Below, piece by piece: positions 6,428 to 58,600 of a stretch of DNA of 64,000 nucleotides (positions are counted from its first letter, which is position 1; each line of letters starts with the position of its first letter). The position numbers and the translations under genes were made by a program. Source of the stretch: a virus (lineage: Duplodnaviria; Caudoviricetes). The stretch lies in the IMG/VR virus record IMGVR_UViG_3300031993_006627, positions 32,001-96,000 of that record; one strand, written 5' to 3'. A model generated the notes under the pieces. That model ran no database searches. It was not told the origin of the DNA and was given only the letters and a program-made list of their open reading frames with translations.

Positions 6428-6461
6428 GGCCCGGATCAGAAATGTTCCGGGCTTTAATTTT
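6428..6461 (+). terminator. intrinsic terminator
   Basis: GGCCCGGA...TCCGGGCT followed by T-rich tract. Confidence 0.6.
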
Positions 6462-6480
6462 CTACCCCAGGTGGAAATTT
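6456..6480. repeat. 25-bp pseudo-palindromic site, copy 1
   Basis: AATTTTCTACC-CCA-GGTGGAAATTT. Confidence 0.8.
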
Positions 6481-6483
6481 CAA

Positions 6484-7092
6484 ATGAGTGAAAACAAAGA
6501 AATCGAAGTGACTCTGCGTACACCGGCCGATTGGATGCAGATGGCAATCGAACATAAGATCGGGAACCAGGAACTCTGGGACCATATCGACAAAAGCAAG
6601 GAAGAGAAGACCGTGTTCGACGGTAAGGAATGGCCGACGCTGTTTGCTATCACCGAGGAGCAGCGTCAGACTATCAACGAACACGTCGACGCGATCTTCA
6701 ACGTCTGCATGAGCGGCGGGATCCCGATCACGGTCGTCATGCAGGAGATGAACATGGGTGGCATCGGTGCCTACAACGTGATGAATGTCATCCCGCGTGG
6801 ACGTGCCGGCCGTAAGATCATGGAAGTCGGAAACATCGTGCATGCTTTCATCGGGGAAGGCACGATTGATTCCCAGAACAGATCGCTGGACTACATCGTC
6901 ACCCGGCACATCGCCAACCTGACAGCGCTCCTGTGGAAGGCCAAAAATCACGAGGTTCCCCGCGAGGAGTTCCACATGCAGATGGAACTTATTGTCCAGG
7001 CGATCTGCAATTACGCCGGAGAACTCAGTAATACGCTGGAACTCTCGGATCCAGAACCTGTTCCCAGTGAAAATGACGAGAAGGAGATCTGA
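6484..7092 (+). CDS. hypothetical protein (paralog trio member 1)
   Basis: Start MSENKEIE; motif 'IFNVCMSGGIPITVVMQ'. Confidence 0.7.
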   Translation: MSENKEIEVTLRTPADWMQMAIEHKIGNQELWDHIDKSKEEKTVFDGKEWPTLFAITEEQRQTINEHVDAIFNVCMSGGIPITVVMQEMNMGGIGAYNVMNVIPRGRAGRKIMEVGNIVHAFIGEGTIDSQNRSLDYIVTRHIANLTALLWKAKNHEVPREEFHMQMELIVQAICNYAGELSNTLELSDPEPVPSENDEKEI

Positions 7093-7094
7093 TC

Positions 7095-7676
7095 ATGTTC
7101 GCTGAAGATGACTTCAATTTTGAGGACTTTGTCGATAATGCTGCTCGCAATGTCCGCAAGAACCTGAAGAAGGAAGAATCGCAGGAGAAATCGGAAAAGA
7201 AATCCGGGGAACAGCCTGAGAAGGGTCCCAGGATGATCAAGAGCAAGGATGGCAAGAGCGGCATCATTGCGTGCAGAACGCCGGAAGAAGCCATCGAGGC
7301 TATCAAAAAATACGGCGTGCCTGACGACGTTATGACTATCGGAGATATCCTGAATCGTATTCTCAAAGGTTCCGAGGAGTATGAACTCACAGAGGAAGAG
7401 GATAAGGAACTTGAGTCCTTGATGAAACCTCTTCAGAAGTTCTGCGACAAACACAAGCTCCCGGCCATGGTTCTTGTCCAGCATGGTAAGAGCGGGACAT
7501 CTGTTGGCATGAAGGGATTCCGGAATGCCGAGGAAGGCCGCATGGAACTCCGTATGCGCTTCATGATGCGTCTGAAGGATCTCATTTACAATGATGCCTG
7601 CTGTGCCGAGGACATGGAGGACATTGCTGAGATCTTCAATCGCATCTATGAAAGACAGGAGAAACGACATGGGTGA
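7095..7676 (+). CDS. hypothetical protein (paralog trio member 2)
   Basis: AAGGAG RBS; motif 'LQKFCDKHKLPAMVLVQ'. Confidence 0.7.
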   Translation: MFAEDDFNFEDFVDNAARNVRKNLKKEESQEKSEKKSGEQPEKGPRMIKSKDGKSGIIACRTPEEAIEAIKKYGVPDDVMTIGDILNRILKGSEEYELTEEEDKELESLMKPLQKFCDKHKLPAMVLVQHGKSGTSVGMKGFRNAEEGRMELRMRFMMRLKDLIYNDACCAEDMEDIAEIFNRIYERQEKRHG

Positions 7677-8001
7677 CTGTCCGGGACGAGGTTGCCTGAC
7701 ATACAAGCTCTCTGAAGCCGACGAAAAGAAACTACAGAGAGCTGTAACCAGGCTGGAGAAGCTGTGTAAGGAACTTGTTGTTCCGGCCATGTGCGTTATC
7801 CAGGTCAGTAACAACAATCGGCACTATGGCACCATCTCCTTCAGCAACCAGGTGACAGCCAAGTCTGATCTGACTGTCGACGCCATGGTGAAGCTGGAAC
7901 ATCTCTTTTGGGGCTTTGAAGACTGCCTCAACAGGGAAGATGTCGCCGATATATGGGAGCATGTGGACGACCTCCACCAGATTTTGAAGGAGAGGAACTG
8001 A
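7669..8001 (+). CDS. hypothetical protein (paralog trio member 3)
   Basis: AGGAG RBS; motif 'LEKLCKELVVPAMCVIQ'. Confidence 0.7.
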   Translation: MGDCPGRGCLTYKLSEADEKKLQRAVTRLEKLCKELVVPAMCVIQVSNNNRHYGTISFSNQVTAKSDLTVDAMVKLEHLFWGFEDCLNREDVADIWEHVDDLHQILKERN

Positions 8002-8201
8002 TGCTCATGCCTACATCCCTTGTGGTGGGCATGGCAATCGGTGAATGGGTAGCCAAAGAATGGGATGGCTGGATGGATGGATGGACCTACACATGGGTTT
8101 ATACTCATGATCGGGACCTGTCTTTTGCTGATGGGCATTCTTCTGGCTGTCGGGGAAAAGAAACCAGAACAACAAACAACGAAGGAATCGACAATGGCTG
8201 A
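8001..8201 (+). CDS. small ORF, possibly a frameshifted membrane-protein gene
   Basis: TGATG overlap. A (TGGA)4 tract at 8070-8085 separates two hydrophobic segments lying in different frames. Confidence 0.4.
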   Translation: MLMPTSLVVGMAIGEWVAKEWDGWMDGWTYTWVYTHDRDLSFADGHSSGCRGKETRTTNNEGIDNG

Positions 8202-8364
8202 TTGTACCAAATGCAACAGCAGTGACAACCCAATCGTGGAAGGCCCGGACTGGAGTGGAGAGAACGAGATTCAGGTTCACCGCAAATGCGAAGTCTGCGG
8301 CCATGTCCAGATCGAATATTACAAGCTCGTGCTCACTGATATTGACGACATGGGGGATCAATGA
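8194..8364 (+). CDS. small zinc-ribbon protein
   Basis: CTKC...CEVCGH..IEYYKL; AAGGA RBS. Confidence 0.7.
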   Translation: MADCTKCNSSDNPIVEGPDWSGENEIQVHRKCEVCGHVQIEYYKLVLTDIDDMGDQ

Positions 8365-8531
8365 AAGCGCCTGAGAAATGCTCCAAGTGTGGAAAGGACG
8401 ATATTCAGACTTTCGAGCCTCCGCTGTTTGAGAGTGACAACCGCATCAGTGTTGTCATGCAGTGTCAGGATTGTGGGCACAAGTGGTATGAATACTTCGA
8501 TCTTACCGAGGTCGTGGAGGAGAACGACTGA
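8361..8531 (+). CDS. small zinc-ribbon protein (56 aa)
   Basis: MKAPEKCSKCG...CQDCGHKWYEYFDL; ATGA overlap. Confidence 0.75.
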   Translation: MKAPEKCSKCGKDDIQTFEPPLFESDNRISVVMQCQDCGHKWYEYFDLTEVVEEND

Positions 8532-8707
8532 TGTTCATCGAAAAAGCATGTCCGCAATGTGGCAGTGAGGACATCGACATCGACTATGGACCGGAGTTCA
8601 ATCTCTTCCAGGATGATGAAGTCACCATAGGTTTCCTGTGCACGGAATGTCTTCATTTCTGGTCCAAGAACTACAAACTCACGCCAGTGGAGGATAACAA
8701 TGGCTAA
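8531..8707 (+). CDS. small zinc-ribbon protein (58 aa)
   Basis: MFIEKACPQCGSEDI...CTECLHFWSKNYKL; GGAGGAG RBS. Confidence 0.75.
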   Translation: MFIEKACPQCGSEDIDIDYGPEFNLFQDDEVTIGFLCTECLHFWSKNYKLTPVEDNNG

Positions 8708-8894
8708 AAAGAAAGAGAAACCGGTTCCCAGGATGCACTGCCCTAAATGTGGCAGCGATGACCTCGATGTGCATGAGATTAACAGAGATGATCGTAGCAT
8801 GTCCGAGGAAGTCGACTGCTGCACTTGTGGTAAATCCTGGACTGAGCACTACAAACTGGTTCTGGAGGAGATCGAAGATGACGAAAATGAGTAG
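8700..8894 (+). CDS. small zinc-ribbon protein
   Basis: CPKCGSDDL...CCTCGKSWTEHYKL. Confidence 0.75.
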   Translation: MAKKKEKPVPRMHCPKCGSDDLDVHEINRDDRSMSEEVDCCTCGKSWTEHYKLVLEEIEDDENE

Positions 8895-9234
8895 CCCGGA
8901 GATACCGCAGAAGGCAAAAGACCTTTGCGCCAAGCTGGAGAGGCTCGCTGAAGACAGAGGGCGCATCACGGAAGCATACCGCGCATTGCGCCATACGGAG
9001 GAGTGCATTCAGGCACAGCAGGAAGAGATCGAACAGGACCTGATGGACATTCTCAACACTGGTGACTTCGAGATACTGGACATCGGTCGGCTTCGCCTTA
9101 TCTTCCAGCCGGAGGACAAGTATAATACCAGGCCGTGGTTCGAGGTTCGCTACCCGGACTACACCGGCGTCTATACCAAGCGACACTTCCTGCGTAAGCC
9201 CGGAAACAAACGCCGGCCGAAGAAAGGAGACTGA
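8887..9234 (+). CDS. hypothetical protein
   Basis: Start MSSPEIPQ; overlaps the upstream stop; coiled-coil N-half. Confidence 0.65.
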   Translation: MSSPEIPQKAKDLCAKLERLAEDRGRITEAYRALRHTEECIQAQQEEIEQDLMDILNTGDFEILDIGRLRLIFQPEDKYNTRPWFEVRYPDYTGVYTKRHFLRKPGNKRRPKKGD

Positions 9235-9235
9235 C

Positions 9236-9589
9236 ATGGGATTTTTACACGAATGCCCATCCTGTCACAAGGTGTGCGAGCAGAACATCTGCACAAGAAC
9301 AGATACCAAGGGATATGAGACCGAACTACTGGAATGTTCAGGTTGCAAACATACTTGGTTTGCCACGCACGTGATCACAGAAGTGAATCTGAATATCGTG
9401 ACGTGCCCAAAGTGCGGCAGTCACGAGACGGATGTCAACGAAGGCCCGTGGATCTACGACACCTACATGAAACTCAACCAGGAATGCTATGAATGCGGCC
9501 ATCTGTGGACCGGCATTTATAAACTCCCTGAGAGAATTGGTGTGGAGGATGAATCGGATCCGACGGACGCCATGGAGGATATCAAATGA
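9236..9589 (+). CDS. double zinc-ribbon protein
   Basis: CPSC..CSGCKHTW and CPKCGS..CYECGHLW; AAAGGAG RBS. Confidence 0.75.
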   Translation: MGFLHECPSCHKVCEQNICTRTDTKGYETELLECSGCKHTWFATHVITEVNLNIVTCPKCGSHETDVNEGPWIYDTYMKLNQECYECGHLWTGIYKLPERIGVEDESDPTDAMEDIK

Positions 9590-9768
9590 AATGCCCGAAA
9601 TGCAAAAGTGAAGAGATCTATCTGGAAGACGGTCCGAACTTCGGACACGGCTGTGACGAAGAAATCTACAACGTCTGGCAGTGTGAGAAGTGCGGAGCCC
9701 GATGGGCCGCTTCCTATGAACTCAATCTCATAGACATAGAAATCCTGGAGGAAGGGAACAATGGATAA
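9586..9768 (+). CDS. small zinc-ribbon protein
   Basis: MKCPKC...CEKCGARWAASYEL. Confidence 0.75.
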   Translation: MKCPKCKSEEIYLEDGPNFGHGCDEEIYNVWQCEKCGARWAASYELNLIDIEILEEGNNG

Positions 9769-9934
9769 GCCCCAGTTCTTACCATGCCCGGTCTGCGGCA
9801 GTATGGTGATCGACTACACGCGAGTGCAACCGATTACAGAGCAGCAGATCGTGATCACCCAGAAATGTGAAGCCTGCGGTCATGTGTGGGAAGATACCTT
9901 CTGGGTGGAGCGCAGTACAAACCTGGAGAACTGA
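9761..9934 (+). CDS. small zinc-ribbon protein (57 aa)
   Basis: MDKPQFLPCPVCGS...CEACGHVWEDTF; GGAGG RBS. Confidence 0.7.
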   Translation: MDKPQFLPCPVCGSMVIDYTRVQPITEQQIVITQKCEACGHVWEDTFWVERSTNLEN

Positions 9935-9935
9935 C

Positions 9936-10175
9936 ATGACTATGCAAACAGTATGCCCGCATTGCGGTTATGCAGCTGATTCGGCCAACCTTGCTGTCAT
10001 GGATCCACCTGATCACATGTCGTTTCTCCAATGCTGTGAACGGTGCGGCGAGTACTACACGGACCACTACAAGGTTCATTTCCTCGGTAGCTCCGCTTAT
10101 GGCTGCAACCTTTATCCGGCAGACGGTGAGACCGAAGAGTCTATGACAGCTGCCGGTGTGGAGCTCGACGACTGA
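9936..10175 (+). CDS. small zinc-ribbon protein
   Basis: CPHCG...CERCGEYYTDHYKV; C-tail YPADGETEESMTAAGV shared with 11768. Confidence 0.7.
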   Translation: MTMQTVCPHCGYAADSANLAVMDPPDHMSFLQCCERCGEYYTDHYKVHFLGSSAYGCNLYPADGETEESMTAAGVELDD

Positions 10176-10372
10176 TGGTTATGCCACATGAATGTCTGGA
10201 GTGCGGAGAGCATTCTAATATCGGTATGGATACCACTGTACAGATGACTCCATGTGGCGAACCAAGTCGCCTGGAGTTCACATTCACGTGTCTGCGATGT
10301 AATCACCAGTGGACAGTCACCACCAAGTATTTCACCGTGGATTTCGATAGGAGACCGCCTGATGAAAGGTAA
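10175..10372 (+). CDS. small zinc-ribbon protein
   Basis: CLECG...CLRCNHQW. Confidence 0.7.
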   Translation: MVMPHECLECGEHSNIGMDTTVQMTPCGEPSRLEFTFTCLRCNHQWTVTTKYFTVDFDRRPPDER

Positions 10373-10733
10373 ACAAACAATCAACTACGAAGGCCATAAG
10401 ATCGGCGACAAGGTGTGGATCTGGGTGGGCTGGTGCAAACTGCTCACCCAGGTCGAAATCCTGGGCATGACACTCTGGTTCTATGAAGACGAACCGGATA
10501 AATCTCACCCGGATTACACGGTCAAGTTCGTTGATCCCAATGGAGAAACTCAGACCTACACGTTCCAGGAGGATGACGTCTACGACACCGCAGAGGAAGC
10601 TATCAGAGCCGCCATCAAGGAGGAAGAGACGGATCTTACTGAGAACAAGGAGATCATCCAGCGGCAGGAGTTCAGCCTTGACTGGCTCAGGCGCCGCCTT
10701 GTACAGGAGACAGCTGATGGCTCTGAAGCATAA
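10362..10733 (+). CDS. hypothetical KOW/SH3-like protein
   Basis: 'HKIGDKVWIW...DVYDTAEEA'; AGGAG RBS. Confidence 0.65.
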   Translation: MKGKQTINYEGHKIGDKVWIWVGWCKLLTQVEILGMTLWFYEDEPDKSHPDYTVKFVDPNGETQTYTFQEDDVYDTAEEAIRAAIKEEETDLTENKEIIQRQEFSLDWLRRRLVQETADGSEA

Positions 10734-10941
10734 GTGCCCGAAGTGCGGAGAACTGACGATCCAGATTGTGGACCACGAGTTCCGCCTCAAGGGCGTCATG
10801 ATCCTGTGGCGCATCTGTGAAAACTGCGGGCATAAGTGGCGTGAAGTCTACAACCTCAGCTTCTTCCAGGGGCTCCCGTGGATCAAGCCGCCGCATAACG
10901 ACGGAGAAGATATATTCGAGGAGGATGACGATGGCTATTGA
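10717..10941 (+). CDS. small zinc-ribbon protein
   Basis: MALKHKCPKCG...CENCGHKWREVYNL. Confidence 0.75.
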   Translation: MALKHKCPKCGELTIQIVDHEFRLKGVMILWRICENCGHKWREVYNLSFFQGLPWIKPPHNDGEDIFEEDDDGY

Positions 10942-11368
10942 ATCCATGTCGCAACTGATCCAGCATGTCAAAAATCACGACGACATCACAGGAAGATGTG
11001 CCGTGATTTTGTCGTTCTGGGCGCACTACTATGAGAAGTCGAGCCATTATCGCAGTATCTCGGTGATAGACTGGGGTCTGCATCAAGGAAAAACAGCGCT
11101 GGAAATCTCTGCCAGTTACAGAGCCTGGGACAGGACGTCCATGGCGATCAGAGGATCCAGTTTCCCAGCGATGTACCTGTTCATGCCGATAGAAGATGTC
11201 GAAGCAGACATCAAGAAACGCCGGCGTGAATACGACAAGGAGATCCGCAAGGAGCGGAAGGCGCAGGAACGTGAGGACCAGGAAAAACGAGACGCCCGGA
11301 TCGAACGGGAATATGCCGAGCTCCAGGAGCGTCGTGCTAAGAAACAAAAGAAAGGAACCAAGAAATGA
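10931..11368 (+). CDS. hypothetical protein with charged coiled-coil tail
   Basis: GAGGAGG RBS; K/E/R-rich C-terminus. Confidence 0.65.
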   Translation: MAIESMSQLIQHVKNHDDITGRCAVILSFWAHYYEKSSHYRSISVIDWGLHQGKTALEISASYRAWDRTSMAIRGSSFPAMYLFMPIEDVEADIKKRRREYDKEIRKERKAQEREDQEKRDARIEREYAELQERRAKKQKKGTKK

Positions 11369-11766
11369 AATTCCGCAAGAAACCTGTTGTCATCGAGGCT
11401 ATCCAATGGACGGGCGACAACGTTGAAGAAATCGGCGAGTTCATGACTGGTGTCCACTGGGCAATGGCAGGTGATCGCGATCCGGTTATTCCCACGCTGG
11501 AAGGGGACATGAAGGTCTCAGTGAACGACTGGATCATCAGAGGCGTGAAAGGGGAATACTATCCCTGCAAGCCCGACATCTTCGAGGCCACCTACGAGCC
11601 CGCGATGAATGAACAGTCTGTGAAATGTCCGGAGTGCGGCGGTACCACTGACCAGGATATCATTATATCCACAGAGGTCCCGCAGTACAGAAAGACCATG
11701 CAACTGCGTGTCTGCAAGCGCTGCGGCAGGGATTTCGTCACAGAGCTCTCCACAAGGGAATTCTGA
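11365..11766 (+). CDS. conserved phage protein (KKPVVIEA...TLEG...YPCKPDIF family) with appended zinc ribbon
   Basis: Signature MKFRKKPVVIEAIQWTG...IPTLEGDM...WIIRGVKGEYYPCKPDIFEATYE, then CPECG...CKRCG. Confidence 0.8.
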   Translation: MKFRKKPVVIEAIQWTGDNVEEIGEFMTGVHWAMAGDRDPVIPTLEGDMKVSVNDWIIRGVKGEYYPCKPDIFEATYEPAMNEQSVKCPECGGTTDQDIIISTEVPQYRKTMQLRVCKRCGRDFVTELSTREF

Positions 11767-11767
11767 C

Positions 11768-12076: not shown

Positions 12077-12267
12077 TTAAACCACAAGTCTGCTCCCGTT
12101 GCGGAAGCGAGAACATCTGGCGAGTCTTCAGCCATAAGGAAGGAGACGACGAATACGCCATGATGGTGACTTGCAAGAGCTGCGGCTATGATTGGCTGGA
12201 GCATTACGAAACTAGGCTGGTCCGTATCGAACTGGTGCATTTCAACAAAAAGGACTCTGACAAATGA
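12073..12267 (+). CDS. small zinc-ribbon protein
   Basis: CSRCGSENI...GDDEY...CKSCGYDWLEHYE. Confidence 0.75.
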   Translation: MIKPQVCSRCGSENIWRVFSHKEGDDEYAMMVTCKSCGYDWLEHYETRLVRIELVHFNKKDSDK

Positions 12268-12527: not shown

Positions 12528-12537
12528 GAGTACCCAA

Positions 12538-12786: not shown

Positions 12787-12822
12787 GAGCTTTGCGCCAT
12801 TACGCTGCAGGTATTGTAGCAC

Positions 12823-13199: not shown

Positions 13200-13886
13200 A
13201 TGTCCACATACGAAGTCATACAGATGCATGATGCACAGGATTCGTCCAAGCTGCAATTCCCCAAGGTTCCGCTGGAAGCGCTGATAGAGGATGTCAACCA
13301 TCTGACAACACCCTATGGAATTCCCGCCAGAGTCACGGAGCTTCTCGCCCTGTCAGCAACAGCTCCCACTCCCACGAAGGCAGGCCAGCACTACTACAAC
13401 ACGGCAACGCACAAGATCCATACGTCGGAAACAAGCGGTGCGACATTCACATGGGATGCGGGACAGGAGCCGCAGGCAGGCATTCTCTATAAGGTGCCAC
13501 AGCAGAGTGGATCCAGCGATACTCTTTACGTAAAGAGTATCGATGCTCTGGGTATCGGGCTGCATGCGATTGGTGTGTACCAGTACAATGGCCCGTTCTG
13601 GTGTGCAGGGGTCAAGTCGGGCACGACATGGGTTGTCGCAGTGGAGTCAGGCAACGTGTACGCAGGCTGGAAGGAGTACACTGTGGCAAGGAATACCAGC
13701 GGTATCACACTGGAAGCAGGGCAGACGCTTTATCTGGTGGGGACCAACGGATCCACAGATGCCACGTTCCAATATACCACAAATGCTTCTGTCACGGGAG
13801 ACATGAGAGTCCGCATCGCATATAACAACGCAGGCAATCTTGTACAGTGTCAATACGGAGATATCCAGACGAATGCATTGACGTAA
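13200..13886 (+). CDS. putative virion/tail-associated beta-rich protein
   Basis: T/G/S-rich; TAAGGAG RBS; lies before a large fibre gene. Confidence 0.55.
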   Translation: MSTYEVIQMHDAQDSSKLQFPKVPLEALIEDVNHLTTPYGIPARVTELLALSATAPTPTKAGQHYYNTATHKIHTSETSGATFTWDAGQEPQAGILYKVPQQSGSSDTLYVKSIDALGIGLHAIGVYQYNGPFWCAGVKSGTTWVVAVESGNVYAGWKEYTVARNTSGITLEAGQTLYLVGTNGSTDATFQYTTNASVTGDMRVRIAYNNAGNLVQCQYGDIQTNALT

Positions 13887-25108: not shown

Positions 25109-26416
25109 ATGCCAGACTTCGCTCCAGGAATCCCAGACAAGCTCAATAAGGGCAGGCTCATGGATCTGCCGACCGACGTGTTGCTCACGATGGTACGGCA
25201 GCAGCATGACGCCCGGAAGGCCGGCCGGCACACGGATCTGCGCATCGGCAATGAGTCTGGCCTCTTCAGTTGGGCTGTGCCGAAGGATCTTCCCACAGAA
25301 CCCGGCCAGTTCCGTCTGGCGATTCCTACGAGCCTGCACCGATATTCCTACAAGGACTTCGAGGGCGACATCCCGGAGGGCAAATACGGCGCCGGCCATG
25401 TGAGCAAGCAGGAAGAATCCCCTGTGGTTCTCCTGAAGAACACGTCCAGCTATATCGAGTTTACCAGGGGCACCAGCAAGGATTCCCCGGTATACAAGAT
25501 GAAGCGCACCAGCGGTGGCAACTGGATCATCGGTATCAAGGAGCCCCAGGAGCCGGAGTCCGTGGCCGATTACCAGCGTGAGCACTTCAAGTCGGTTCCC
25601 ATTGAGAGCGTCCAGAAGATGATTGATAGCGGCGCGACCATTGCCCCCAAGATCGACGGCTCCTCTGTGTTGGCATATCTGGACAAGCACGGCATCAAGG
25701 TCTATGGCACCCGACCGGACAAGTCGGGGCACAAGCCTGACTACAGCGCACACATCGGCGGTCTTTCTCAGGTGCAGGTGCCGGAGGATCTCGTGGGCAT
25801 GATGCTGCGCGGAGAACTCTACGGTGTGCGTAATGGGCAGGTGATCCCACCTCAGGAACTCTCCGGGTTTCTCAACAGTACCATCCAGAACGCCATTCAG
25901 AAGCGCCAGCGTGGTCTCCGACTTATGGTCGCGGCTCTGGCCGTGAATCGTGGCAAGGATGACTATGGAGCGCCTGTGGGCGACATCGTGCGCCGGCTCC
26001 ACAGTCCTTCTTTTACAGCATTGCAGCCGGTCGGCGGGGAGAAAGCCCGCAGATTGCTCCGGCAGATACTGGCTGGCCGGCATCCGCTCACCCAGGAGGG
26101 CTTAGTGATCCACCAGAAAGACAAGCGGCCGCTGAAGGCGAAGCTCCGTGAGGACTATGATGTGGTAATCCGGGACATCTTCCCGGCGGATACCAAGTCC
26201 GAGCCACGGGCCGGCGGATTCACCTATGCACTCCCTGATCGGCCGGACAAATTGGTCGGTAACGTGGGTACCGGGTTCTCCCATGAACTGCTGCGGGACA
26301 TGCTGCAGCACCCGGAGAAATACGTTGGCCGGCTGGCCCGCATCCATGCTCAGTCTCAATATCCGGACACCGGCGCTTACAGAGCGCCGAGTTTTATCGC
26401 AATGAGGGAAGACTAA
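25109..26416 (+). CDS. LigD-type 3'-phosphoesterase domain fused to ATP-dependent DNA ligase
   Basis: PE: QQHDA...HTDLRI...SWAVPK...RLA...H..SY.DFEGDIPEGKYGAG. Ligase: KIDG, GEL, EGLVI, LKAK; OB-fold VGTGF, RAPSF. Confidence 0.85.
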   Translation: MPDFAPGIPDKLNKGRLMDLPTDVLLTMVRQQHDARKAGRHTDLRIGNESGLFSWAVPKDLPTEPGQFRLAIPTSLHRYSYKDFEGDIPEGKYGAGHVSKQEESPVVLLKNTSSYIEFTRGTSKDSPVYKMKRTSGGNWIIGIKEPQEPESVADYQREHFKSVPIESVQKMIDSGATIAPKIDGSSVLAYLDKHGIKVYGTRPDKSGHKPDYSAHIGGLSQVQVPEDLVGMMLRGELYGVRNGQVIPPQELSGFLNSTIQNAIQKRQRGLRLMVAALAVNRGKDDYGAPVGDIVRRLHSPSFTALQPVGGEKARRLLRQILAGRHPLTQEGLVIHQKDKRPLKAKLREDYDVVIRDIFPADTKSEPRAGGFTYALPDRPDKLVGNVGTGFSHELLRDMLQHPEKYVGRLARIHAQSQYPDTGAYRAPSFIAMRED

Positions 26417-27071: not shown

Positions 27072-27096
27072 GAAGTTCCACTTCAGGTAGAAAATT
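27072..27096. repeat. 25-bp pseudo-palindromic site, copy 4
   Basis: GAAGTTCCACT-TCA-GGTAGAAAATT. Confidence 0.8.
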
Positions 27097-27943: not shown

Positions 27944-29116
27944 ATGGAACAAGAAGAGTGGAAGCCAATCATCGGGTTTGAAGGGCAATACGAGGTATCC
28001 AATCTTGGCCGACTCCGCAGAACATGTAATCAGCGCATCCTGAAACCAAGCAGTGTGAGAGGGTGTCTGCTGGTCACACTTCGTAAAGACAGGAAAGCAC
28101 GGTCATACACGGTAGCAAGATTGGTTGCCTTTGCATTTCTCGGTGCACCGGATAACAGTGAGTCCGTAGTAGGGCATCTGGACGGCGATACTTGCAATAA
28201 TGCGTTGAAGAACCTGTACTGGACGACCAATGGCTATTTGCTGCAGACACCGAGAATTGTGGCGCTTCTCAAGGCAGCAAGATCTTCCCCTGAGGCTCGC
28301 GCAGCCATGGCAAAGCGTATGGAAGGTTATGGCGATACTCCGGAGGGAGCCGCCAGATTGCGTAAGATGACAGACGCTGCTGCTTTGCACAACATAAAAA
28401 AGATCATGTGTCTGGAAACCGGCGTTATTTACCCGTCTATCAAAGCCGCTTCTGCTGCATTCGGGCTTTCCAGGGGAGCAATATCAACGAAACTTCTCCG
28501 GGCAAAAACCAGGCAGTATAACAAGTTCAGCACGAAAGGTAAACCTGTATTTCATTTCCGGTTATATGACCCGGAGGAATGGAAACCTAAAGAACGCATC
28601 TGGCGACCCGTAGTGGGATTCGAAGGGAAATACGAAGTCTCGAATATGGGTGAAGTGCGGAATGCTAAAACGAAGCGGCCAAAGAAAGTCTGTTGGGATA
28701 AGGAAGGCAAGCCCGATTACGTTGGTCTCTCTGTGAATGGGAGCAAAGGAAGAACCCTCACGGTTCCACGGCTGGTTGCAGAAGCATTTATCCCCAAGGT
28801 ATATGGATCTTCAGCAGTGGGTCACAGGGATGGTGATCGACACAATAACTGTGTGACAAACCTGTTCTGGTCCAGTAAGCGTGGAGTGACTACTCCCATA
28901 GCGAAGGCACGATTTATGGAGAGGCTACCAAGGAGACAGATAATTTGTATAGAAACTGGCAAATTATATGGCTCCATCAGGGAAGCAGCAAAAGACTGCA
29001 ACATGCGAGAAGGCACTGTTGGTATGGCCTGTAAGCGAGCAGAGAAAGGAGTACGGTATACCGTCCGGAATGCACGTGGTAGATCTATTCTTCATTTCCG
29101 GTATGCTGACCAGTGA
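27944..29116 (+). CDS. tandem-duplicated NUMOD4-HNH-NUMOD1 endonuclease
   Basis: Two units of W.P..GFEG.YEVSN.G...V.RLVA.AF...VGH.DGD..NN...NL.W...I.C.ETG..Y.SI..A...HFR. Confidence 0.85.
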   Translation: MEQEEWKPIIGFEGQYEVSNLGRLRRTCNQRILKPSSVRGCLLVTLRKDRKARSYTVARLVAFAFLGAPDNSESVVGHLDGDTCNNALKNLYWTTNGYLLQTPRIVALLKAARSSPEARAAMAKRMEGYGDTPEGAARLRKMTDAAALHNIKKIMCLETGVIYPSIKAASAAFGLSRGAISTKLLRAKTRQYNKFSTKGKPVFHFRLYDPEEWKPKERIWRPVVGFEGKYEVSNMGEVRNAKTKRPKKVCWDKEGKPDYVGLSVNGSKGRTLTVPRLVAEAFIPKVYGSSAVGHRDGDRHNNCVTNLFWSSKRGVTTPIAKARFMERLPRRQIICIETGKLYGSIREAAKDCNMREGTVGMACKRAEKGVRYTVRNARGRSILHFRYADQ

Positions 29117-29192: not shown

Positions 29193-29251
29193 CAGATGCA
29201 AGGCTTACAATTTTCTAATAGTCAATCAATAACTTTTAGGCTCCAGTTGAC

Positions 29252-29281
29252 CTTAATAAGGATACCTTTTGGGGCAGAATA
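29252..29281 (+). promoter_or_regulatory. class-1 promoter-like motif
   Basis: CTTAAT-N17-CAGAAT. Confidence 0.6.
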
Positions 29282-29333
29282 ATCTGGATCGGGTGATCCA
29301 ATAGTTTAACCAACCAAACAGAAAGGAGGAACT

Positions 29334-30419
29334 ATGGAATTTATACCCATTGATCCATTCCTGTCGCTGCCTCACCCGGCACGCGACGGAATCTGCGGGA
29401 TGCCCAATGTCCAATGGGATCCTGCCCTGCTTACAAAGCGCGAGCAGGAAATCATCATCGCCGCCTGGGACGGAGATGTCATCATCGACTTCCAGGCGAA
29501 GCGCTTCGAACGCGGCCGCGTAATCACGGTTGCAGTCCATAACGGAGATCCTCACGCCGATGACATCGGTGCTGTGGCGCTCCTCATGGTTCTGCTTCGT
29601 GGTTTCCAGATCCGGGTTTTCCGTACCCGTGATCCGCAGAAACTGGCCAATGCCGATATCCGCATCGACGTTGGTTTCGGCGCGTTCGATCACCACGGGC
29701 TCCGCGCCGATAAGGCGCATGGGATCTCCGCGATTACGAGGATATTCTTCCTCCTCCTGAACAGTCTGGGCGATGAATATCCCCGGATTGTCTGGGAGCG
29801 GTTCGCAGATATCTGCGACCGTATCGCGGCGTCTGATGTCGGCCTCATCGAGTTTACCATCACCCCCTGGGTGAACGATGCAGTGGCCGCACATCGTGCC
29901 GACCCCGGCTGGTCGGCTGACGGGGACGGCAGCGATACGACGGAAGATGGCCTGTTCAATAGGCTAGTCGACCGTATGTATAGCTGGTTCGACGACGTGT
30001 TCCGCAAGGCGATGGCGGAGCACAGAGCTACCGAAGCAGCGCTTGCTGACATTGCGGAATCGGGGGATCCTGCCTATGTCGTTTTCTCCGAGGATGCCAG
30101 GCAGGCGCCGTGCAAGGAGATCCTGTGGAAGCAGGGTCACACCGCATGGTACTTCATCAGCCCCGGCCGGGCAGGTGAAAGATGGGTCGTGGGTTGCACC
30201 TGTGATCCGTCCGGTCCGTTCCTCCGGAAGTCCAGCTGGCACCTGTTCCCGGAACGCCTCTGGGGGCTGGAAGATGCCGCGCTGGAAAAAGCAGCCGATC
30301 TCCCGAAGGGGACTATCGGCTTCGTCCACGCAGACGGCTTCCTGGCCGTGCTTAATAGCTTTGAGGCAGCTATTAAGTTTGTCAAGTTCTGCCTCAAGGA
30401 AGGGGGCTGGGGGTCGTGA
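29334..30419 (+). CDS. MYG1/UPF0160 family (DHH-type) protein
   Basis: HNGDPHADD, RTRDP, DVG...FDHH, FVH..GF motifs. Confidence 0.8.
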   Translation: MEFIPIDPFLSLPHPARDGICGMPNVQWDPALLTKREQEIIIAAWDGDVIIDFQAKRFERGRVITVAVHNGDPHADDIGAVALLMVLLRGFQIRVFRTRDPQKLANADIRIDVGFGAFDHHGLRADKAHGISAITRIFFLLLNSLGDEYPRIVWERFADICDRIAASDVGLIEFTITPWVNDAVAAHRADPGWSADGDGSDTTEDGLFNRLVDRMYSWFDDVFRKAMAEHRATEAALADIAESGDPAYVVFSEDARQAPCKEILWKQGHTAWYFISPGRAGERWVVGCTCDPSGPFLRKSSWHLFPERLWGLEDAALEKAADLPKGTIGFVHADGFLAVLNSFEAAIKFVKFCLKEGGWGS

Positions 30420-34499: not shown

Positions 34500-34528
34500 A
34501 AGCCCAGGAAACTCCTGGGCTTCTTTTT
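34500..34528 (+). terminator. terminator between convergent genes
   Basis: AAGCCCAGGA AAC TCCTGGGCTT CTTTTT. Confidence 0.75.
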
Positions 34529-34814
34529 ACACTTTAGGGGGTGGCTGACCATACTGAAGCAGGCGCTCGATATCTTTCTTGTCATACATCCGGTTGCTTT
34601 TCGTGATGTAGACTTCCCGGATCCAGCCGTTCTTCACATAGCGGCGCAATGTTGGCCGCGTGCATCCCAGGAGGCGCACAGCACCAAGGGCAGTGACAGT
34701 TTCCCTTTCGTCTGCGTGATCCAGCAGATACATGACGTCTTGCATTGTTTCCGGATGCACCGTTGTGTCCCAGTTGAGGATCTTCTGGATACACCATTTT
34801 GTCAGCTTTTTCAT
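34527..34814 (-). CDS. MerR/excisionase-like winged HTH protein
   Basis: 'TALGAVRLLGCTRPTLRRYVKNGWI...RMYDKKDIERL'; GGAGGTG RBS. Confidence 0.8.
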   Translation of the reverse strand: MKKLTKWCIQKILNWDTTVHPETMQDVMYLLDHADERETVTALGAVRLLGCTRPTLRRYVKNGWIREVYITKSNRMYDKKDIERLLQYGQPPPKV

Positions 34815-35195: not shown

Positions 35196-35789
35196 ATGAA
35201 GCATTCTGATTTTTACAACATGATGTCGCAAGAGAGCGGCGTGATCACGACAGACGACAACGGCAACAGCATCTGCACCATCTGCCATGGTGTCGGGAAG
35301 CACTTCGAAGCCTCTGTCAAGCACCACAAAGGCTGCGCCTTCATCAAGGCGATTAAGTCCATGGAAGACATCATGCCGGACAAAATTACACTCCAGGTGG
35401 AAAATTCGATCACACTCGGAATGATGCTTCCGTACCTTGCCAATATGGAAGCTGTCAACATGGACAGGATCTCGGATTACGTCAACTGCATGAAGGAGGC
35501 GGAATCCAAAGAGGAACGCGATCATGTCGCCGCCATCATCCAGGCCTGGTGTTTCTGTGTCAAGGATGAGATACTGGAAGCGGTTGTCGAACACGGGCTG
35601 CCGGACGACAAGGCGGAGGAAACCTTCAAGAACTACCTGATCTTCGAATGGTGCAACGAAGCCCAGCTGCTGCATCTTGCAGTTGAGACGCTTGCATTCG
35701 AGAACAGCAAGGCCGCCTTCTATCCGAAATTCAAAGCGCTCCTCTGTGAGAAATATCCGCATTACGCGCAGTCTTCTAAGAAAGACTAA
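35196..35789 (+). CDS. hypothetical protein
   Basis: GGAG RBS; CxxC...H..GC motif. Confidence 0.7.
   Translation: MKHSDFYNMMSQESGVITTDDNGNSICTICHGVGKHFEASVKHHKGCAFIKAIKSMEDIMPDKITLQVENSITLGMMLPYLANMEAVNMDRISDYVNCMKEAESKEERDHVAAIIQAWCFCVKDEILEAVVEHGLPDDKAEETFKNYLIFEWCNEAQLLHLAVETLAFENSKAAFYPKFKALLCEKYPHYAQSSKKD
35382..35406. repeat. 25-bp pseudo-palindromic site, copy 5
   Basis: AAAATTACACT-CCA-GGTGGAAAATT (intragenic). Confidence 0.75.
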
Positions 35790-50941: not shown

Positions 50942-50944
50942 TGC

Positions 50945-50969
50945 AATTTTCCACCTGAGGTAGAAAATC
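50945..50969. repeat. 25-bp pseudo-palindromic site, copy 6 (inverted)
   Basis: AATTTTCCACC-TGA-GGTAGAAAATC. Confidence 0.8.
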
Positions 50970-50973
50970 TTTC

Positions 50974-51001
50974 AGGCCCCGTAACAGGGGCCTTTTCTTT
51001 T
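50974..51001 (+). terminator. intrinsic terminator
   Basis: AGGCCCC GTAACA GGGGCCT TTTCTTTT. Confidence 0.75.
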
Positions 51002-51048
51002 ATAGTAGAGAGTGATACGCGCCCGGTTACATAAGAGGAGACCATAAC

Positions 51049-52623: not shown

Positions 52624-52685
52624 CACCGTGTCCCTTATTCTATAGTAGAACGAGACGCGAGGGCTACATAAGAGGAGATACGAAC

Positions 52686-55600
52686 ATGCCAGAAGAACCT
52701 GTTACACCGATACAAGCAGCGAAAACCACGATGTCCACGATCCGGCTGGTGCCGGACAAGCCGAAAAAGACTGCTGCAGATTGGGTAAGGGATATGCGCA
52801 TGTCTCCTGAGGTCAATAAAACGACCGTAGGAGTCGATACAGCGTCTGTTACCGGTGATCTCCTCCTGGCGACTTCCAATAAGCTCCTCGGTATTTCCCG
52901 GCGCAAACTGGAGCCGGATCCGAAGGATTCCCTGGAGTTCCAGCGTTTTTATGGGCCAGCGGAGTACTTCGCAGAACACGTCATGCGCGACGGTAATAAG
53001 CTCGGCCGCAATATCCTTTGGAAAGCAACGAACCAGGGCAATCTGGATTTTATGCCGGTTGCCGCGCTGGACAAGCATATTTCCGATGTCTACTACGACA
53101 GCAAGCTCGCCCAGATGATCGACGGTTCCTCTCCGCTGGAAACAGTGGATGCTTCCTATAAGACCACCCGCATCGGTGAAGGCGGTGTCGGCGACCTGGA
53201 TTCTGCACCGGAAGAGATGCGCACGGTGCAGCCGTCGTTCCTCGGTTTTATAGATTCAATAAGGTCGCCTGAGAGTTTCCGAGTCGGCCTTGATGTCTAT
53301 ATGACTAAGAATGTTATGAAGGGTTCCGACGGAAAGCTCTACCAGAAGTTCATCAATGCTCACACTGGCAAGGAAGAACTGGTGGATTCCGAGACTATTG
53401 CGAAATCCATAGTAACAACGCCGGAAATCATGAAGACAAAGACTAAATCAGTCTTTGCGGTTGGCGGCCCGACTGGTGTTCGCATCGTTCCGCGCAAGGA
53501 TGTGGATTACTATCTACCCAGAGCGGATGAGGCCTATAGCCTTTCCTCGAATATGGTCACGATGCCATCGGCTGTCATTGGCATGCGTCTGCTGATGGGC
53601 TGCCTGCACCCGGAGACCAATGTGTTTGTGGCCAATGAGCGCAACATGGTGTCTATGGTGAAAGCCAGATACCTGACCGGGAAAGATCAGCGGATACCCG
53701 GTATGAACAAGGAGTACAATTCCCTCTGCTACGGCCTGCGGAATACGATCACCAAGTGCGTTCCCCAGGCAAAGTGGTTCAAAAAGATCGTCTTGCGCTC
53801 CGGTCGCGTGATTATCACCAGTTATGACCATAAATGGCCGGTGCTGGTTAAGGATGAGATGACTCTGGTCCAGGCAAGAGATCTTCGGGCCGGCGACACG
53901 GTGTTCCGTACCACTTTCAAAGACGTGCCGAATCGCCGGACGTTCCTGAACAAACACATCATCACCAGGGACGTTGCGTTTGTCCTCGGTCTGATCTGCC
54001 GGTCGGTCTATACGAATCATCCGGGATCCGTGGGCTTTTGCTACCCGATTGCAACTGATTTGCGTGTAAAAGAGGCAATTCAATACGTCTATAGAGATCT
54101 CACTCCCAAGCAGTTCCATATCACGAAGAAAGACGGTTTCCGGTACATGACAATCAAATGCCAGGGGCTTTATGATTTCGTGAAGCAAAACATTGGTTTC
54201 AAACCAGAGGAACGCCGGATCCCGTCCGAAATCCTCAGCGGCTACGCAGATGTCGCTGCAGAGTTCATCAACGGTTATACCTCGGATGAGACGAAGGTCG
54301 GCATCGACTGCAACGAGGATATCTGGGTGCTGTTTATCCCGAATATGGATTTCCGGGATCAGCTGGCGTTCCTGTTTGCCCGTATGGGTACTGATACGCT
54401 GTACCGGGATGCCTCCCAGAATGGTGAACTGCAGATCGCTCTCAAGATCAATGACCAACCCAGAGTTTTCCATGATATGTACCAAGACACTGTGAAATAT
54501 GTCTGGGAAGGCCCGAAGTGTCCGATCATGGTGGACATCGACATCAATGACAACATGTATGCAGTTGCCAATGGCATCGTGACGCACAACTCGAAGTATC
54601 CTCTGCAGGCTGTCTCTCTGGAGCAACGCGAAGCTCCTCTGGTCCGTACACTGGACGAAGCCTCCGGAAAAGATATGGCGCAGATCGCCGGTAAGTTCCT
54701 CGGTGCCAGGTTTGCCCCGAAGGGTGGTATCGTCAGTGCAGTCCGCAAGGATAGAATCGATGTCATCTGGGATGATGGTTCGAAGGGTGCAGTTCCCCTC
54801 TATGTAAACTTCCCGATGAATGCCAAGGGCTACATCAATAATACGCCGGTGGTGAAGGCCGGCCAGTCGTTCAGTAAGGGTGACTGTCTCGCGGCCTCCA
54901 ATTACACAGACAAGACAGGCACTGCAGCACTCGGCATCAATCTCCGCACCGGTTGGATTTCCTGGAAGGGCGGTACCTACGAGGATGCCGTTGTGATCTC
55001 GGAAGAAGCGGCCAAGAAGCTCACCAGCACGACGATGTACAACACATCAGTTGATCTGGATAAGACTGTTTCCCTGGGCAAGCACAATTACATCACCTGG
55101 AAGCCGGCGGAGTACACCAAAGAACAGATGCAGCAGCTGGACGACAACGGAATTGTCAAGCCAGGCACGGTACTTCACAAGGGCGACCCGATGATCCTCG
55201 CCATCCGTACTAGCGAACCTTCACCTGGTACGATGGGAAAGCGTATCTTGACCGATCTTTCGGAGACCTGGGACCACGATCATGCTGGTGTTGTGACTGA
55301 TGTGGTCAAGACCCGCAAGGGTGTCAAGGTTTATACCACCGTGACTGCGCCGGCGGAAGTCGGGGACAAGATCGCCGGCCTGCATGGCAACAAGGGCACG
55401 ATTGCCCAGATCCTGCCGGCCGACCAGATGCCACAGACACAGAACGGTACACCGCTGGATATTTGCTTCAGCCCGCTGGGTATCACCAGCCGTAACAATA
55501 CGGCGCAGCTCTATGAAGCACTGCTGGCAAAGGTTGCCAAGAAGACCGGCAAGACACAGGTTGTCCCGGCGTTCTACGACGGGGATCTCTACGAGTACGT

Positions 55601-58600
55601 CCAGAGCAAGCTGAAAGAAGCTCGTGTACACGCAGATGAAGACTTGGTGGATCCGGAGACAGGCCGCACGATTCCGAATATCCTGACCGGCTACATCTAT
55701 ACACACAAGCTGAAACATCTGGCTGAATCCAAGATGTCGGCCCGTGGCACCGGCGAATACGCTGCGGATGAGACACCGGCTGGTTCTGGCGAGACAAAGG
55801 CGAAGCGTTTTGGGTCGCTCGAAATTGGCGCGATGGTGGGCCATTCTGCTTTCGAGAACCTGCGCGATGCAAAGCTGCTCAGGGGACAGTCAAATGCCGA
55901 CTTCTGGCGGTCTATCAGAACCGGCAACATCCCGACGATGCCGGGCGAGCCTCTCGTCCACAAGAAGTTTTTCGCCCATCTGATTGGCTCAGGCGTGAAT
56001 GTCCGGAAGAGTCAGCAAGGCGTGAGCGCGTTTGCTCTCTCCAGTGACGATGTGGAAGAACTTACCGGCCCCCGCGAGTTGAAGACCCGTGATACCTACG
56101 AAACACGTAATTTTCGACCCATCGACGGCGGTCTGTTCGGCCAGGACATCTTCGGCATCAATGGAGACAAGTGGGCATATATCAAACTCGACGAACCGGT
56201 TCCGAATCCTGTAATGGAAGAGCCTCTCGCCCGTTTGCTCCGAATGCCGGACAAGACATTCATTGGTGTTGCGACAGGCAAGACGGAGTACAACGGAATC
56301 CGTGGACCGCTGCAGCTGAAGGATGCGTTGGCAAACATCAATCTGGAAACCGAAGCCAAGAATGCTCTCCAGGAACTCAAGAATGCTCCAGTGTCCAAGA
56401 AGGATGCCGCGCTGAAGCGCTATGTCGCCATCGAACGCATGCGCCGGCTCGGTGTCAGCCCGGATAAGTATATGCTGGACAAGATCCCGGTACTGCCTCC
56501 GCAATATCGTCCGATCAGCACGCACAACGGTCTCACGATGGTTGCTGACAGCAATTATCTGTATGCCCAGCTGCTGGATGCAAGGGATGATGTCCGGGAA
56601 GCACGGGATCTACCAGAAGAATATCAGCAGCAGGCACGCGAGACGCTGTACAAAAACTGGAAAGAGCTGACCGGTCTGTACGAACCGGAGAACAAGGCGT
56701 TCAAAGCAAAACATATCCAGGGACTTCTGAAGTGGGCATTGGGTGACAGCCCGAAGTTCTCGGCCGCGCAGCGGAAGATCATCGGTATCGGTGTCGATAC
56801 TGTGGGCCGTGGTGTCATTACCCCGAACCCACGTATCAAGCTGAACCAGGTTGGTCTTCCGGAAGATATGGCGTTCGGTATCTTCTCACCACTGGTGGAA
56901 CGTGCTCTTGTGCAGCGCGGCTACACCCCGGTGGACGCCATCAAGCAGGTGCACGATAAAACGAACCAGGCTCGTGAGATTCTACTGAAGGTCATGGAAA
57001 CACACCCCGTGCTTATGAACCGTGCACCTACGCTGCACAAGCTGTCGATCATGGCGTTTAATCCGGTACTTGTCAGCGGTCATGCTCTGCAGATCAATCC
57101 GAGTATCGTTGTTCCATTCGGTGCTGACTTCGACGGCAACTGTGTTGATTACGACAGCGAGATTTTCTTGAAAATATCAAAGTCTCAACACAATATTTCC
57201 ACTGCTGATTTCGTTAATTGTGTATCAAACCACAAAAATAGAAAGGATACACAAGACATGAAAACAACAGCTGAATCCCTCGTAACCTACTGGAGCGACG
57301 CAGAGAATGACTATCTGGTGATGAAGATCGGGGATCTTCCCCGTCTCGGAAACCCCATGAAGGACAAGAACGGCGCCGATTGCTATCAGGTTCCTGAAGG
57401 TCTCGAAGTCCTTACATGCAATCCGTCTACTGGAACGGCTGAATGGCAGGCAATCAATATGCTGACAGTGGAAGAAGACTGTGATACTGTCAAGATGAAA
57501 TTGGGCGCGAGGGATGTGATTCTGTCTACAAACGAGTCCGTTGCCGTCTTCGACCATGGGACCGGGTTGCTGACTAAAGTTACCCCAGAGACCGCGTATG
57601 CCGAGAAAGCAATGATTCCTGTGTTCAAGCAGAATCCTCTTCCATTCGGGACATATGCAGAACGGGATCTTGGCTGGCTTTTCGGTGCTTTTATCTCGGA
57701 CGGCTGGATGACTGATCGTACTATTGGTTATTGCAAGCTGGAGAAGGCGAAGAGGGATGAGTTCGTATCTATCCTGCGCCGCTACCACGATAACTTCACG
57801 GTGTACCAATACGATGAGGATGGCAAAGCAAACAAGTGCAAACTCGGAAAGTCGGCTAAGATTCACATAAACAGTAAAACAGCTGTTGATTGGCTCAGCC
57901 AGTGGAAGTTTGTGGACGAGGAAGCCAAAGCAAAGAACCCAGATAAACGTACTGCGTTGTTCAAGCACGTTCCGGAACATTTGATTACTTATGGCAGTGA
58001 AGAGTTCCTTTGGGGGCTGTTCTGCGGTCTGATCGACGGGGATGGTAGTCTGGTTAAGAATATGTCCACGGGCAAACCTCGTTTTACCTGCAGATTTTCT
58101 ACCTCAAGTGTAAAATTGAAAGATGACATCTGTCAGCTCTGTTACAGGCTCGGTCTGCGCTACTCTGTGACCGAGATTCCTCCGCGCAACTTCTCGAATA
58201 CAGCGTATGTTGTATTTCCTTCTACGACAGATCTTTTCAGCAAGTTGGACAAGATTCAGCTGATTGGGGAAAGAGAAAAAGCCGTTTTGGAAGAGTGGAG
58301 ACAAAGTGAACCAAGTTTGGACAGGAACGACATTGTTCCTATAACAGAGTTCGAATGGGATTGCATAAAGTCCTATCCGGAAATCATGTCCGACAAAGGT
58401 TTGTACAGCGCAGCCAGTAAGTCCAGAAAGATAGGAAGACGTGCTTGTCGCGAAGTCCTGTATCGTCATCTGGATATATTGAAATGCGCTGCACCATCGT
58501 TACTGCGCAGAGTTCTTAATACAGACACAATATGGATGACCATCGACAGCTTGGATCCGACCGGTAAGCGTCAGGTGTTTGATCTTGAGGTACAGGACAC

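Follow-up and report, generated by a model that had tools for sequence, protein, structure and literature searches.

Evenly spread 25-bp palindromes in a large phage genome as probable docking sites of a two-fold-symmetric protein

A 25-bp palindrome recurs 15 times along the genome of a large phage, at intervals more even than chance and in contexts that range from intergenic DNA to the interior of genes. The genome is virus record IMGVR_UViG_3300031993_006627 (164,346 bp, 52% G+C; referred to here as G000), and the window, which holds seven of the copies, is the 64,000-nucleotide stretch formed by bases 32001-96000 of that record. The palindrome is very probably a docking site, on duplex DNA, of a protein with two-fold symmetry. 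Whether the array serves a co-evolving phage protein in a task that spans the genome, either the anchoring of loops and compaction or the provision of barriers and landing points for long-range control, we regard as evenly balanced. Genes whose proteins have diverged to 30-70% identity still retain these 25 bp at an unchanged codon, which makes the element an unusually clean case of DNA-level selection over coding.

Copies of the palindrome and their spacing

All seven copies listed by an initial annotation of the window were found where it had placed them. Its spacings of 7.4, 6.7, 6.5, 8.3, 15.6 and 7.1 kb (in full, 7429, 6665, 6522, 8310, 15563 and 7148 bp) were correct, as was its assignment of four copies to intergenic DNA and three to coding sequences, one of them in an intein endonuclease. 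The copies in the window are as follows (scores in bits; ORF, open reading frame).

6456..6480 (genome 38456): intergenic, ATG 3 nt downstream; 36.1 bits
13885..13909 (genome 45885): overlaps the stop codon of ORF 13200-13886; 35.4 bits
20550..20574 (genome 52550): 3' end of a 97-aa ORF, in frame (EIPPQVEN); 31.5 bits
27072..27096 (genome 59072): 4 nt after a stop codon; 32.0 bits
35382..35406 (genome 67382): in frame within the 197-aa gene 35196-35789
50945..50969 (genome 82945): 4-5 nt after a stop codon; top score, 38.2 bits
58093..58117 (genome 90093): LAGLIDADG domain of polymerase intein 2, frame FSTSSVK; 34.7 bits

The 17-bp core, with three mismatches or fewer allowed, gave 12 strand-hits in the window against 0.22 expected, a number reached in none of 100 shuffles, and the palindrome is the most repeated 11-12-mer in G000. 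The whole genome was scanned with a symmetrised weight matrix, which returned 15 sites:

Genome coordinates, palindromes 1-8: 1199, 20464, 38456, 45885, 52550, 59072, 67382, 82945
Genome coordinates, palindromes 9-15: 90093, 101647, 108829, 125253, 139823, 147226, 162313

These score 26-38 bits; the next hit, a lone half-site, scores 15.1 bits and shuffled genomes reach at most 15.6 bits, so that an artefact of chance or composition was rejected. A mobile mini-element or homing target was also rejected, since the sequence flanking the copies shows no conservation and the positions are syntenic. Around site 147226 Tandem Repeats Finder detected no array.

The earlier consensus, RAWWTTMYACY-YCA-RGTRKAAAATY, had rightly presented the element as a pseudo-palindrome, and its letters are corrected here to a 12+1+12 palindrome with A-tract arms, RATTTTCYACY-YSR-RGTRGAAAATY. 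Each half-site reads RATTTT-xx-AC-Y, and the two halves flank a loosely constrained 3-bp centre; positions T5, T6, A9 and C10 and their mirror positions are invariant in G000. Copy 50945, which had been called inverted, differs only at the central base. Since this base flips between orthologous copies, the distinction is meaningless and orientation carries no signal.

Gaps between neighbouring sites range from 6.5 to 19.3 kb, with a mean of about 11 kb. With the contig, which is about 93% complete, handled as linear, the coefficient of variation (CV) of the gaps is 0.40 (P=4e-4), i.e. the sites are over-dispersed, and the minimum gap of 6522 bp was unmatched in 20,000 random placements. A strict 7-kb periodicity was rejected by a Rayleigh scan from 3 to 12 kb, in which the best period in G000 was 7300 bp (P=0.17), with worse values in relatives. 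The description "about every 7 kb" consequently holds as regards evenness, but the figure itself is local to the window and there is no significant period. Nor was there a degenerate copy near 43 kb, where one had been predicted; the best weight-matrix score in the 15.6-kb gap is 1.6 bits.

Conservation of sites among relatives

Relatives were IMG/VR records found with a polymerase alignment, and four of them were taken as whole records. G004 is a circular assembly with a 55-bp overlap. Five of the relatives, G002, G003, G004, G005 and the fragment G007, share the 25-bp architecture, and gene order is collinear between G000 and the motif-bearing relatives. The palindrome is lacking in G001, G006 and G008-G014, all with a polymerase identity of 59% or less; in G001, a more distant relative, matches equal the control count, and G006 has no such palindrome, only an unrelated longer repeat. 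This repeat is a conserved element of at least 70 nt, present in 13 copies (e.g. 2235-2305, 9174-9244 and 159783-159853) mostly in regions rich in small genes, with a core AAGAAAGTGAATTGCTGGG that follows a hairpin-like CACACCGCGAGGTGTG.

Site totals are 15 in G000, 15 in G003, 14 in G004 and about 12 in G005. The outer arms and the AC/GT dinucleotides are common to the motif-bearing genomes, and the two letters before AC are specific to the lineage:

G000: CC, CT (rarely AC); CCAC/CTAC
G002 and G003: CA, GA; CAAC/GAAC
G004 and G007: AT, CT; ATAC/CTAC
G005: GT, AT; GTAC/ATCC

The ATCC half of G005 is derived, and spacer length in this genome varies by 1 bp.

When positions were mapped through protein alignments, at least 11 of the 15 G000 sites had a syntenic partner in at least one relative. 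Site 6456 is roughly syntenic with G003 127370 and G004 175820, site 13885 has its partner at G003 114882, and in the region that corresponds to genome 147226, beside the terminase genes, both G003 and G004 keep a copy; site 20550 is without counterpart in G003. The lone right half-site mentioned above, GAAGTGGAAAATC (genome 145115-145139, 15.1 bits), lies within a gene and may be a decayed copy, because it is near the location of a full G003 site (13300).

Conservation is most precise at four intragenic sites (genome 67382, 101647, 108829 and 125253), which fall on identical codons when the homologous genes of three or four genomes are compared, in proteins that are only 30-73% identical. The first is copy 35382 of the window, whose counterparts in the homologues from G003 (84352) and G004 (21454) share its codon position. 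The second lies in an 884-aa gene (genome 99508-102162) that has an intein of its own (Hint, LAGLIDADG_3) and of which only the C-terminal extein aligns with relatives. The peptide at the four sites is D-F-x-L-x-V-x-N, and its x residues track the DNA variant of each genome; at the third codon, for example, G000 has Leu or Thr, G003 has Glu, Gln or Val, and both G004 and G005 have Ile. The Phe codon is TTT in 12 of 12 cases, against a genome-wide usage of 25%, and rare codons are used that fit the variant (CTA and TTA, 2% of Leu each; ATA, 11%; GTA, 11%; CAA, 17%). A protein motif, xFxxQVEN, was rejected as the selected object: some copies are read in another frame, as FST-type peptides, and others are non-coding; in addition, synonymous positions do not vary, and the residues are those that the DNA variant dictates. 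The intragenic copies are kept by selection at the DNA level, which overrides protein coding. The initial annotation had singled out synonymous conservation of these copies as a check on its proposal, and the codon data, together with scores far above background, bear it out.

Even spacing is likewise found in the relatives. The CV is 0.45-0.46 in G003 (P about 1e-3 to 2e-3), 0.32-0.35 in G004 (P 1e-4 or below) and 0.54-0.57 in G005 (P about 0.03), and the largest gap is about 20 kb in G000, G003 and G004. Near the RNA polymerase gene the sites are specific to the lineage, lying just before the gene in G003, 1.7 kb before it and inside intein 2 in G000, and inside intein 1 in G004; from their locations, such gains look position-driven. 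Sites vary in context, being found after stop codons, over start codons and in frame inside genes, and since they stay syntenic while the contexts vary, it is the position in the genome that is kept and not a relation to expression signals.

The variation between half-sites also bears on whether the palindrome acts as a nucleic-acid hairpin, whether in RNA, as a stem-loop for termination, processing or stability, or in DNA, as an extruded promoter of the N4 type. On paper the consensus folds into an 11-bp stem and a 3-nt loop, and a scan for terminator patterns picked up one copy. However, in G000, G003 and G004 complementarity is at or below independent expectation for every variable arm pair (for example, 4 observed vs 7.6 expected, and 5 vs 7.8); compensatory changes are lacking, and in the three genomes a site usually combines half-site variants that do not match. 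Unlike variants are in fact combined within a site more often than expected, identical halves numbering 11 vs 17.6 expected (P=0.03). Because the arms never co-vary, there is no selection for an RNA or a DNA hairpin. Furthermore, the A/T-rich stem is followed by non-conserved sequence without the U run of an intrinsic terminator, and copies lie deep inside genes in either central orientation. N4-type promoters have a 5-7-bp stem that must pair and a 3-nt loop, are clustered before early genes and serve a single-subunit virion polymerase; here pairing is not selected, the sites extend over all modules and the polymerase is a two-barrel enzyme of multisubunit type. We consider a hairpin function extremely improbable.

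Gene contexts, candidate reader and possible roles

The plus strand carries almost all genes of G000, and most of its proteins have no family match. Recognisable products are split pieces of a family-A DNA polymerase and an NAD-dependent ligase, Baseplate J and a gpA-like large terminase, HNH/NUMOD nucleases and one MerR-type helix-turn-helix (HTH) protein. Besides its own multisubunit-type RNA polymerase the phage encodes two sigma-70-like proteins, the second of which also has regions 2 and 3. Four of these genes are located as follows:

Window 52686-58910: fused beta-beta' multisubunit-type RNA polymerase with two inteins, 2074-aa ORF
Window 60702-62555: beta' C-terminal domain as a separate gene; also a weak M23-peptidase match
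Genome 29220-30206, minus strand: sigma-70-like protein 1 (regions 2 and 3), kept in five of five compared genomes
Window 34527-34814, minus strand: 95-aa MerR-type winged-helix protein (MerR_1, 27.9 bits vs a cut-off of 21.6 bits)

The 2074-aa ORF comprises beta and the N-terminal part of beta', and its inteins are marked by Intein_splicing at 364-635 and LAGLIDADG at 1777-1842; in relatives the polymerase gene has zero to several inteins and encodes 1285-3257 aa. Polymerase homologues number in the thousands, with identities from 95% downward, and the closest (87-95% identical) are on Logan/ENA contigs. By this protein the nearest cultured phages are Salmonella phage Arash and some Vibrio phages, at only 33-36% identity, and megablast against GenBank phages gave no match. 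In six-frame translations of G000, the recombinase families PF00239 and PF00589 found nothing at E <= 0.1, and the ParB N-terminal domain PF02195 had no match at E <= 1 over the whole 164 kb, while control genomes matched. As neither a tyrosine or serine recombinase nor a ParB domain was found, G000 probably represents a large phage with a virulent life style. The window also includes a region of small accessory genes, where three genes (25109-26416, 27944-29116 and 29334-30419) encode a fusion of a LigD-type 3'-phosphoesterase with an ATP-dependent ligase-like C-terminus, a homing endonuclease of the NUMOD4/HNH type and an exonuclease of the MYG1 family.

Of the 15 sites, six are within or border on non-coding DNA, which makes up only roughly 11% of the total (P=0.004), an excess that we read as placement where 25 bp are cheapest. 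Some adjoin translation starts: those at genome 38456 and G003 127370 stand immediately before an ATG, and at genome 162313 and G003 177485 the palindrome itself provides a Shine-Dalgarno-like GGAG and the ATG of the gene. The next gene begins 50 nt after site 13885, and 22 nt after site 20550. Directly 3' of site 27072 there is an intrinsic-terminator-like hairpin with a T run, and at 50945 the stop codon is followed by the palindrome, a terminator hairpin and a conserved TATAGTAG element, an arrangement that recurs in G003 (site 71286) immediately upstream of its RNA polymerase gene. Site 20464 is probably intragenic, to judge from a reading frame through it (genome 20300-20700) that is conserved in G000 and G003 with the pattern CLSF..EI...L.A......FSTP..IS.K.Y.KT.RIR..VK and was not called by the crude gene model.

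The TATAGTAG element belongs to a promoter- or leader-like cassette, TATAGTAG ... ACGCG ... ACATAAGAGGAGA, of which two copies (window 50970-51048 and 52624-52685; genome 82970-83048 and 84624-84685) precede a 524-aa gene and the gene for RNA polymerase; in G003 there is a single copy, in front of the polymerase gene. A second promoter-like repeat was rejected as an explanation of the sites, as only this cassette, before two genes, turned up. IMG/VR gave no match to the exact motif or to the 524-aa protein. The 327-aa neighbour of site 50945 has no homologue among 5.8 billion proteins, and because neither it nor the 524-aa gene has a homologue in relatives, the two genes look like an insertion that duplicated the leader.

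These contexts invite a reading of the palindromes as classical signals, that is, operators or promoters read by the beta-beta' RNA polymerase or the sigma-like proteins of the phage and switching adjacent units. The phage does encode both kinds of protein, the excess at gene boundaries and the vicinity of some sites to terminators or -10-like boxes agree with such a role, and copy number, length and lineage letters resemble the promoter sets of phage polymerases, phages of the T7 group having about 17 lineage-specific 23-bp promoters. However, the genes run one way, yet the site has two-fold symmetry and a central base that flips between orthologous copies. No constant distance from the sites to start codons or -10-like boxes was found, the start codon itself is within some sites, and at 27072 and 50945 the palindrome stands upstream of the terminator and not after it. 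Furthermore, three of the four deeply conserved intragenic sites are 22-62 codons into their genes, where a promoter or terminator would truncate the product. We hold this explanation to be unlikely. With non-random spacing and no promoter association in the genome-wide scan, the earlier proposal that the element is no classical promoter-proximal operator is supported, and so is its counterpart, a DNA-level site for a two-fold-symmetric binder that is tolerated, and in fact actively kept, inside genes.

Dimeric nucleases typically recognise long symmetric sites whose centre is unconstrained. A phage endonuclease of this kind might cut or nick the palindromes, as in the localized single-strand interruptions of T5-, phiKMV- and LUZ24-like phages, or might seed recombination-dependent replication or clamp loading, for which evenly spaced entry points would be suitable. 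Several HNH/NUMOD and LAGLIDADG nucleases are encoded, and for a 172-aa clade-specific protein (genome 6913-7431) the fold comparison produced weak restriction-endonuclease-like rows (Z 3-4.6, not significant). These rows are below any useful threshold, the best fold match of the protein having a Z of 4.6, and no nuclease could be linked to the motif; a symmetric cutter would break both strands of its own genome, and known phage nick sites are typically asymmetric and affect one strand. Cleavage or nicking appears distinctly unlikely.

The sites might also be bound by a regulator or nucleoid protein borrowed from the host, in which case the lineage letters would mirror different hosts. There is a precedent in phages that carry sites for host regulators, such as CtrA boxes (PMC9437464). 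When the relaxed consensus was compared with 185,579 species genomes, the matches listed were scattered single ones in unrelated taxa and included no genome with a set of sites, nor did any of them stand out as a rumen candidate, which is weak evidence against a host protein. The gradual drift of half-sites among close phages fits a co-evolving phage protein better, and host-protein sites seem to us very improbable.

Pfam searches over 146 small and about 40 larger proteins gave DNA-binding matches only for the MerR-type protein, the two sigma-like proteins, weak winged HTH (wHTH) hits and zinc ribbons. Of the two readers that the initial annotation had suggested, the HTH protein at 34527 stays a reasonable candidate, and the small protein at 6151 has only a weak NUMOD-like match. 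The former, the 95-aa MerR-type protein, is the best available candidate reader, and its DNA-binding domain is the only clear sequence-specific one whose occurrence follows that of the motif. Its gene is among the few on the minus strand, with its start codon 568 bp from copy 35382. In an AlphaFold2 (AF2) model with a predicted local distance difference test (pLDDT) score of 82, it has a C-terminal wHTH (residues about 42-88) and extra N-terminal helices (3-15 and 21-33), and the top Foldseek rows for the model are HiNmlR, BldC, MtaN, Pukovnik Xis and RacA (E about 0.02-0.08, probability 0.97-1.0). The protein evolves fast, with only four close homologues among 5.8 billion proteins. Homologues of 24-56% identity are present in G002, G003, G004 (in the same place) and G005, none was found in the complete motif-less genomes G006 and G009, and the protein co-occurs with the motif in five of five complete motif-bearing genomes. 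Scans of IMG/VR and JGI metagenomes with its alignment returned only genomes already in the comparison set. Operators of MerR regulators have the dyad in an overlong spacer of 19-20 bp between the -35 and -10 boxes; here no fixed relation to -10-like boxes is observed. TnrA/GlnR-type relatives dimerise on DNA through N-terminal segments (PMC4914108), which makes it plausible that the 95-aa protein dimerises as well, through its N-terminal helices.

Together, the sites would be explained by a protein of which each of two subunits reads one half-site on duplex DNA. This docking protein would most probably be phage-encoded, its specificity having drifted together with its sites. About 15 strong sites and no weak ones are maintained in the genome wherever 25 bp fit, at over-dispersed intervals. 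An even and context-free array points to an action on the whole chromosome and not at single nearby promoters. The protein might anchor or bridge DNA loops, or its sites might serve as barriers or landing points, roughly every 10 kb, for the long-range control of one-directional transcription.

Several observations weigh against this interpretation. Its biological role is reached by exclusion and, like protein binding and the identity of the reader, is something that we infer. The location of six of the 15 sites in or near non-coding DNA, and of several against terminators, may indicate a link to transcription units. A simple homodimer fits less well the sites of G005, most of which are asymmetric, with ATCC on one side and GTAC on the other, and among which spacer length varies by 1 bp. 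As many sites are inherited, the spacing statistics of the four genomes are non-independent. With regard to the candidate reader, the 95-aa protein has no antiparallel coiled coil, the dimeriser of classical MerR proteins, after its DNA-binding domain, and some small MerR relatives, e.g. BldC and Xis, bind direct repeats. Furthermore, phylogeny confounds the co-occurrence of its gene with the motif, as the same pattern is found for many clade-specific genes, including that of the 172-aa protein.

A more specific and doubtful proposal is that in the large lytic phages of this clade the sites constitute a private chromosome-architecture code, in which a small ParB-less protein of the MerR type would use about 15 even sites to fold, anchor or partition the DNA into roughly 10-kb domains that would serve a factory for replication or packaging or allow transcription to be controlled domain by domain, with specificities that diversify like plasmid incompatibility groups. 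For packaging or staged ejection, both of which had been suggested earlier, no result speaks in particular. If the array does organise the chromosome or insulate transcription domains, it would add a new layer of genome management in large phages, and the lineage letters would offer a ready-made system for the co-evolution of a binding specificity with a genome-wide set of sites. Dispersed dyad repeats, which are poorly understood, become directly testable here, given some 15 defined sites and a few candidate readers.

Comparison with known systems

Among published elements the nearest is the 17-bp dyad TGTTCGG-NNN-CCGAACA of Cluster O mycobacteriophages (Cresawn et al. 2015, PMC4351075). Both elements are inverted repeats with a 3-bp variable centre, dispersed between and inside genes, at positions mostly shared by relatives, with no orientation signal and with most copies away from promoters. 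The authors of that study infer a dimeric DNA-binding protein, doubt a transcriptional role and leave the function unknown (PMC4351075). The palindrome is a dispersed dyad repeat of the same kind, the likeness being one of kind only. It is 25 bp long with A-tract arms and about five times sparser (1 per 11 kb vs 34 copies in one Corndog genome), and its spacing is even, its half-site letters drift and it is held at the same codon across proteins of 30-70% identity. Both the sequences and the phages are unrelated, the one studied here being large, with its own RNA polymerase and no recombinase detected.

Two systems from bacteria and plasmids, to neither of which the element belongs, show how dispersed palindromes can be used for silencing over long distances or for anchoring a chromosome. 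KorB of the IncP plasmid RK2 (McLean et al. 2025, PMC11790492) is a dimeric ParB-family CTP-dependent sliding clamp that acts from its OB palindromes both locally and at a distance. Here no ParB N-terminal (CTPase) domain is encoded in any of the six frames of G000, the site is about twice as long, and no KorA-like partner site was seen. In Bacillus subtilis, RacA, a wHTH protein of the MerR superfamily, binds the ram palindrome at 25 dispersed regions and anchors and remodels DNA instead of regulating promoters (PMC4914108). Its DNA-binding domain is among the fold matches of the 95-aa protein, at a weak E of about 0.08. By contrast, ram is a 14-bp GC-rich palindrome clustered round the origin, and RacA has a long C-terminal coiled coil that binds DivIVA, while the phage protein has only 95 aa and its extra helices are N-terminal.

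Phage repressor sites such as the L5 stoperators and the C1 operators of phage P1 are also present in many copies over the genome, some of them intragenic, and their specificities co-evolve. These sites are asymmetric, stoperators depend on orientation, and both serve lysogenic silencing; G000 differs in that no tyrosine or serine recombinase and no ParB were found in it, and a temperate life style is for that reason unsupported. As for recombination sites of the hix/gix/res/att type, there is again no serine or tyrosine recombinase, and gene order is conserved in the relatives.

The initial annotation had likened the element to parS and matS, a label that does not fit. The parS, OB and NBS sites are palindromes of 13-16 bp with sequences unrelated to the 25-mer, which is built as 12+1+12 with A-tract arms, and the ParB N-terminal domain is missing. 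The matS consensus is the 13-bp GTGACRNYGTCAC, to which RATTTTCYACY-YSR-RGTRGAAAATY is unrelated. Placed beside these systems, the palindrome array is a ParB-less case, with a long and sparse site, deep conservation of position and a visible drift of specificity.

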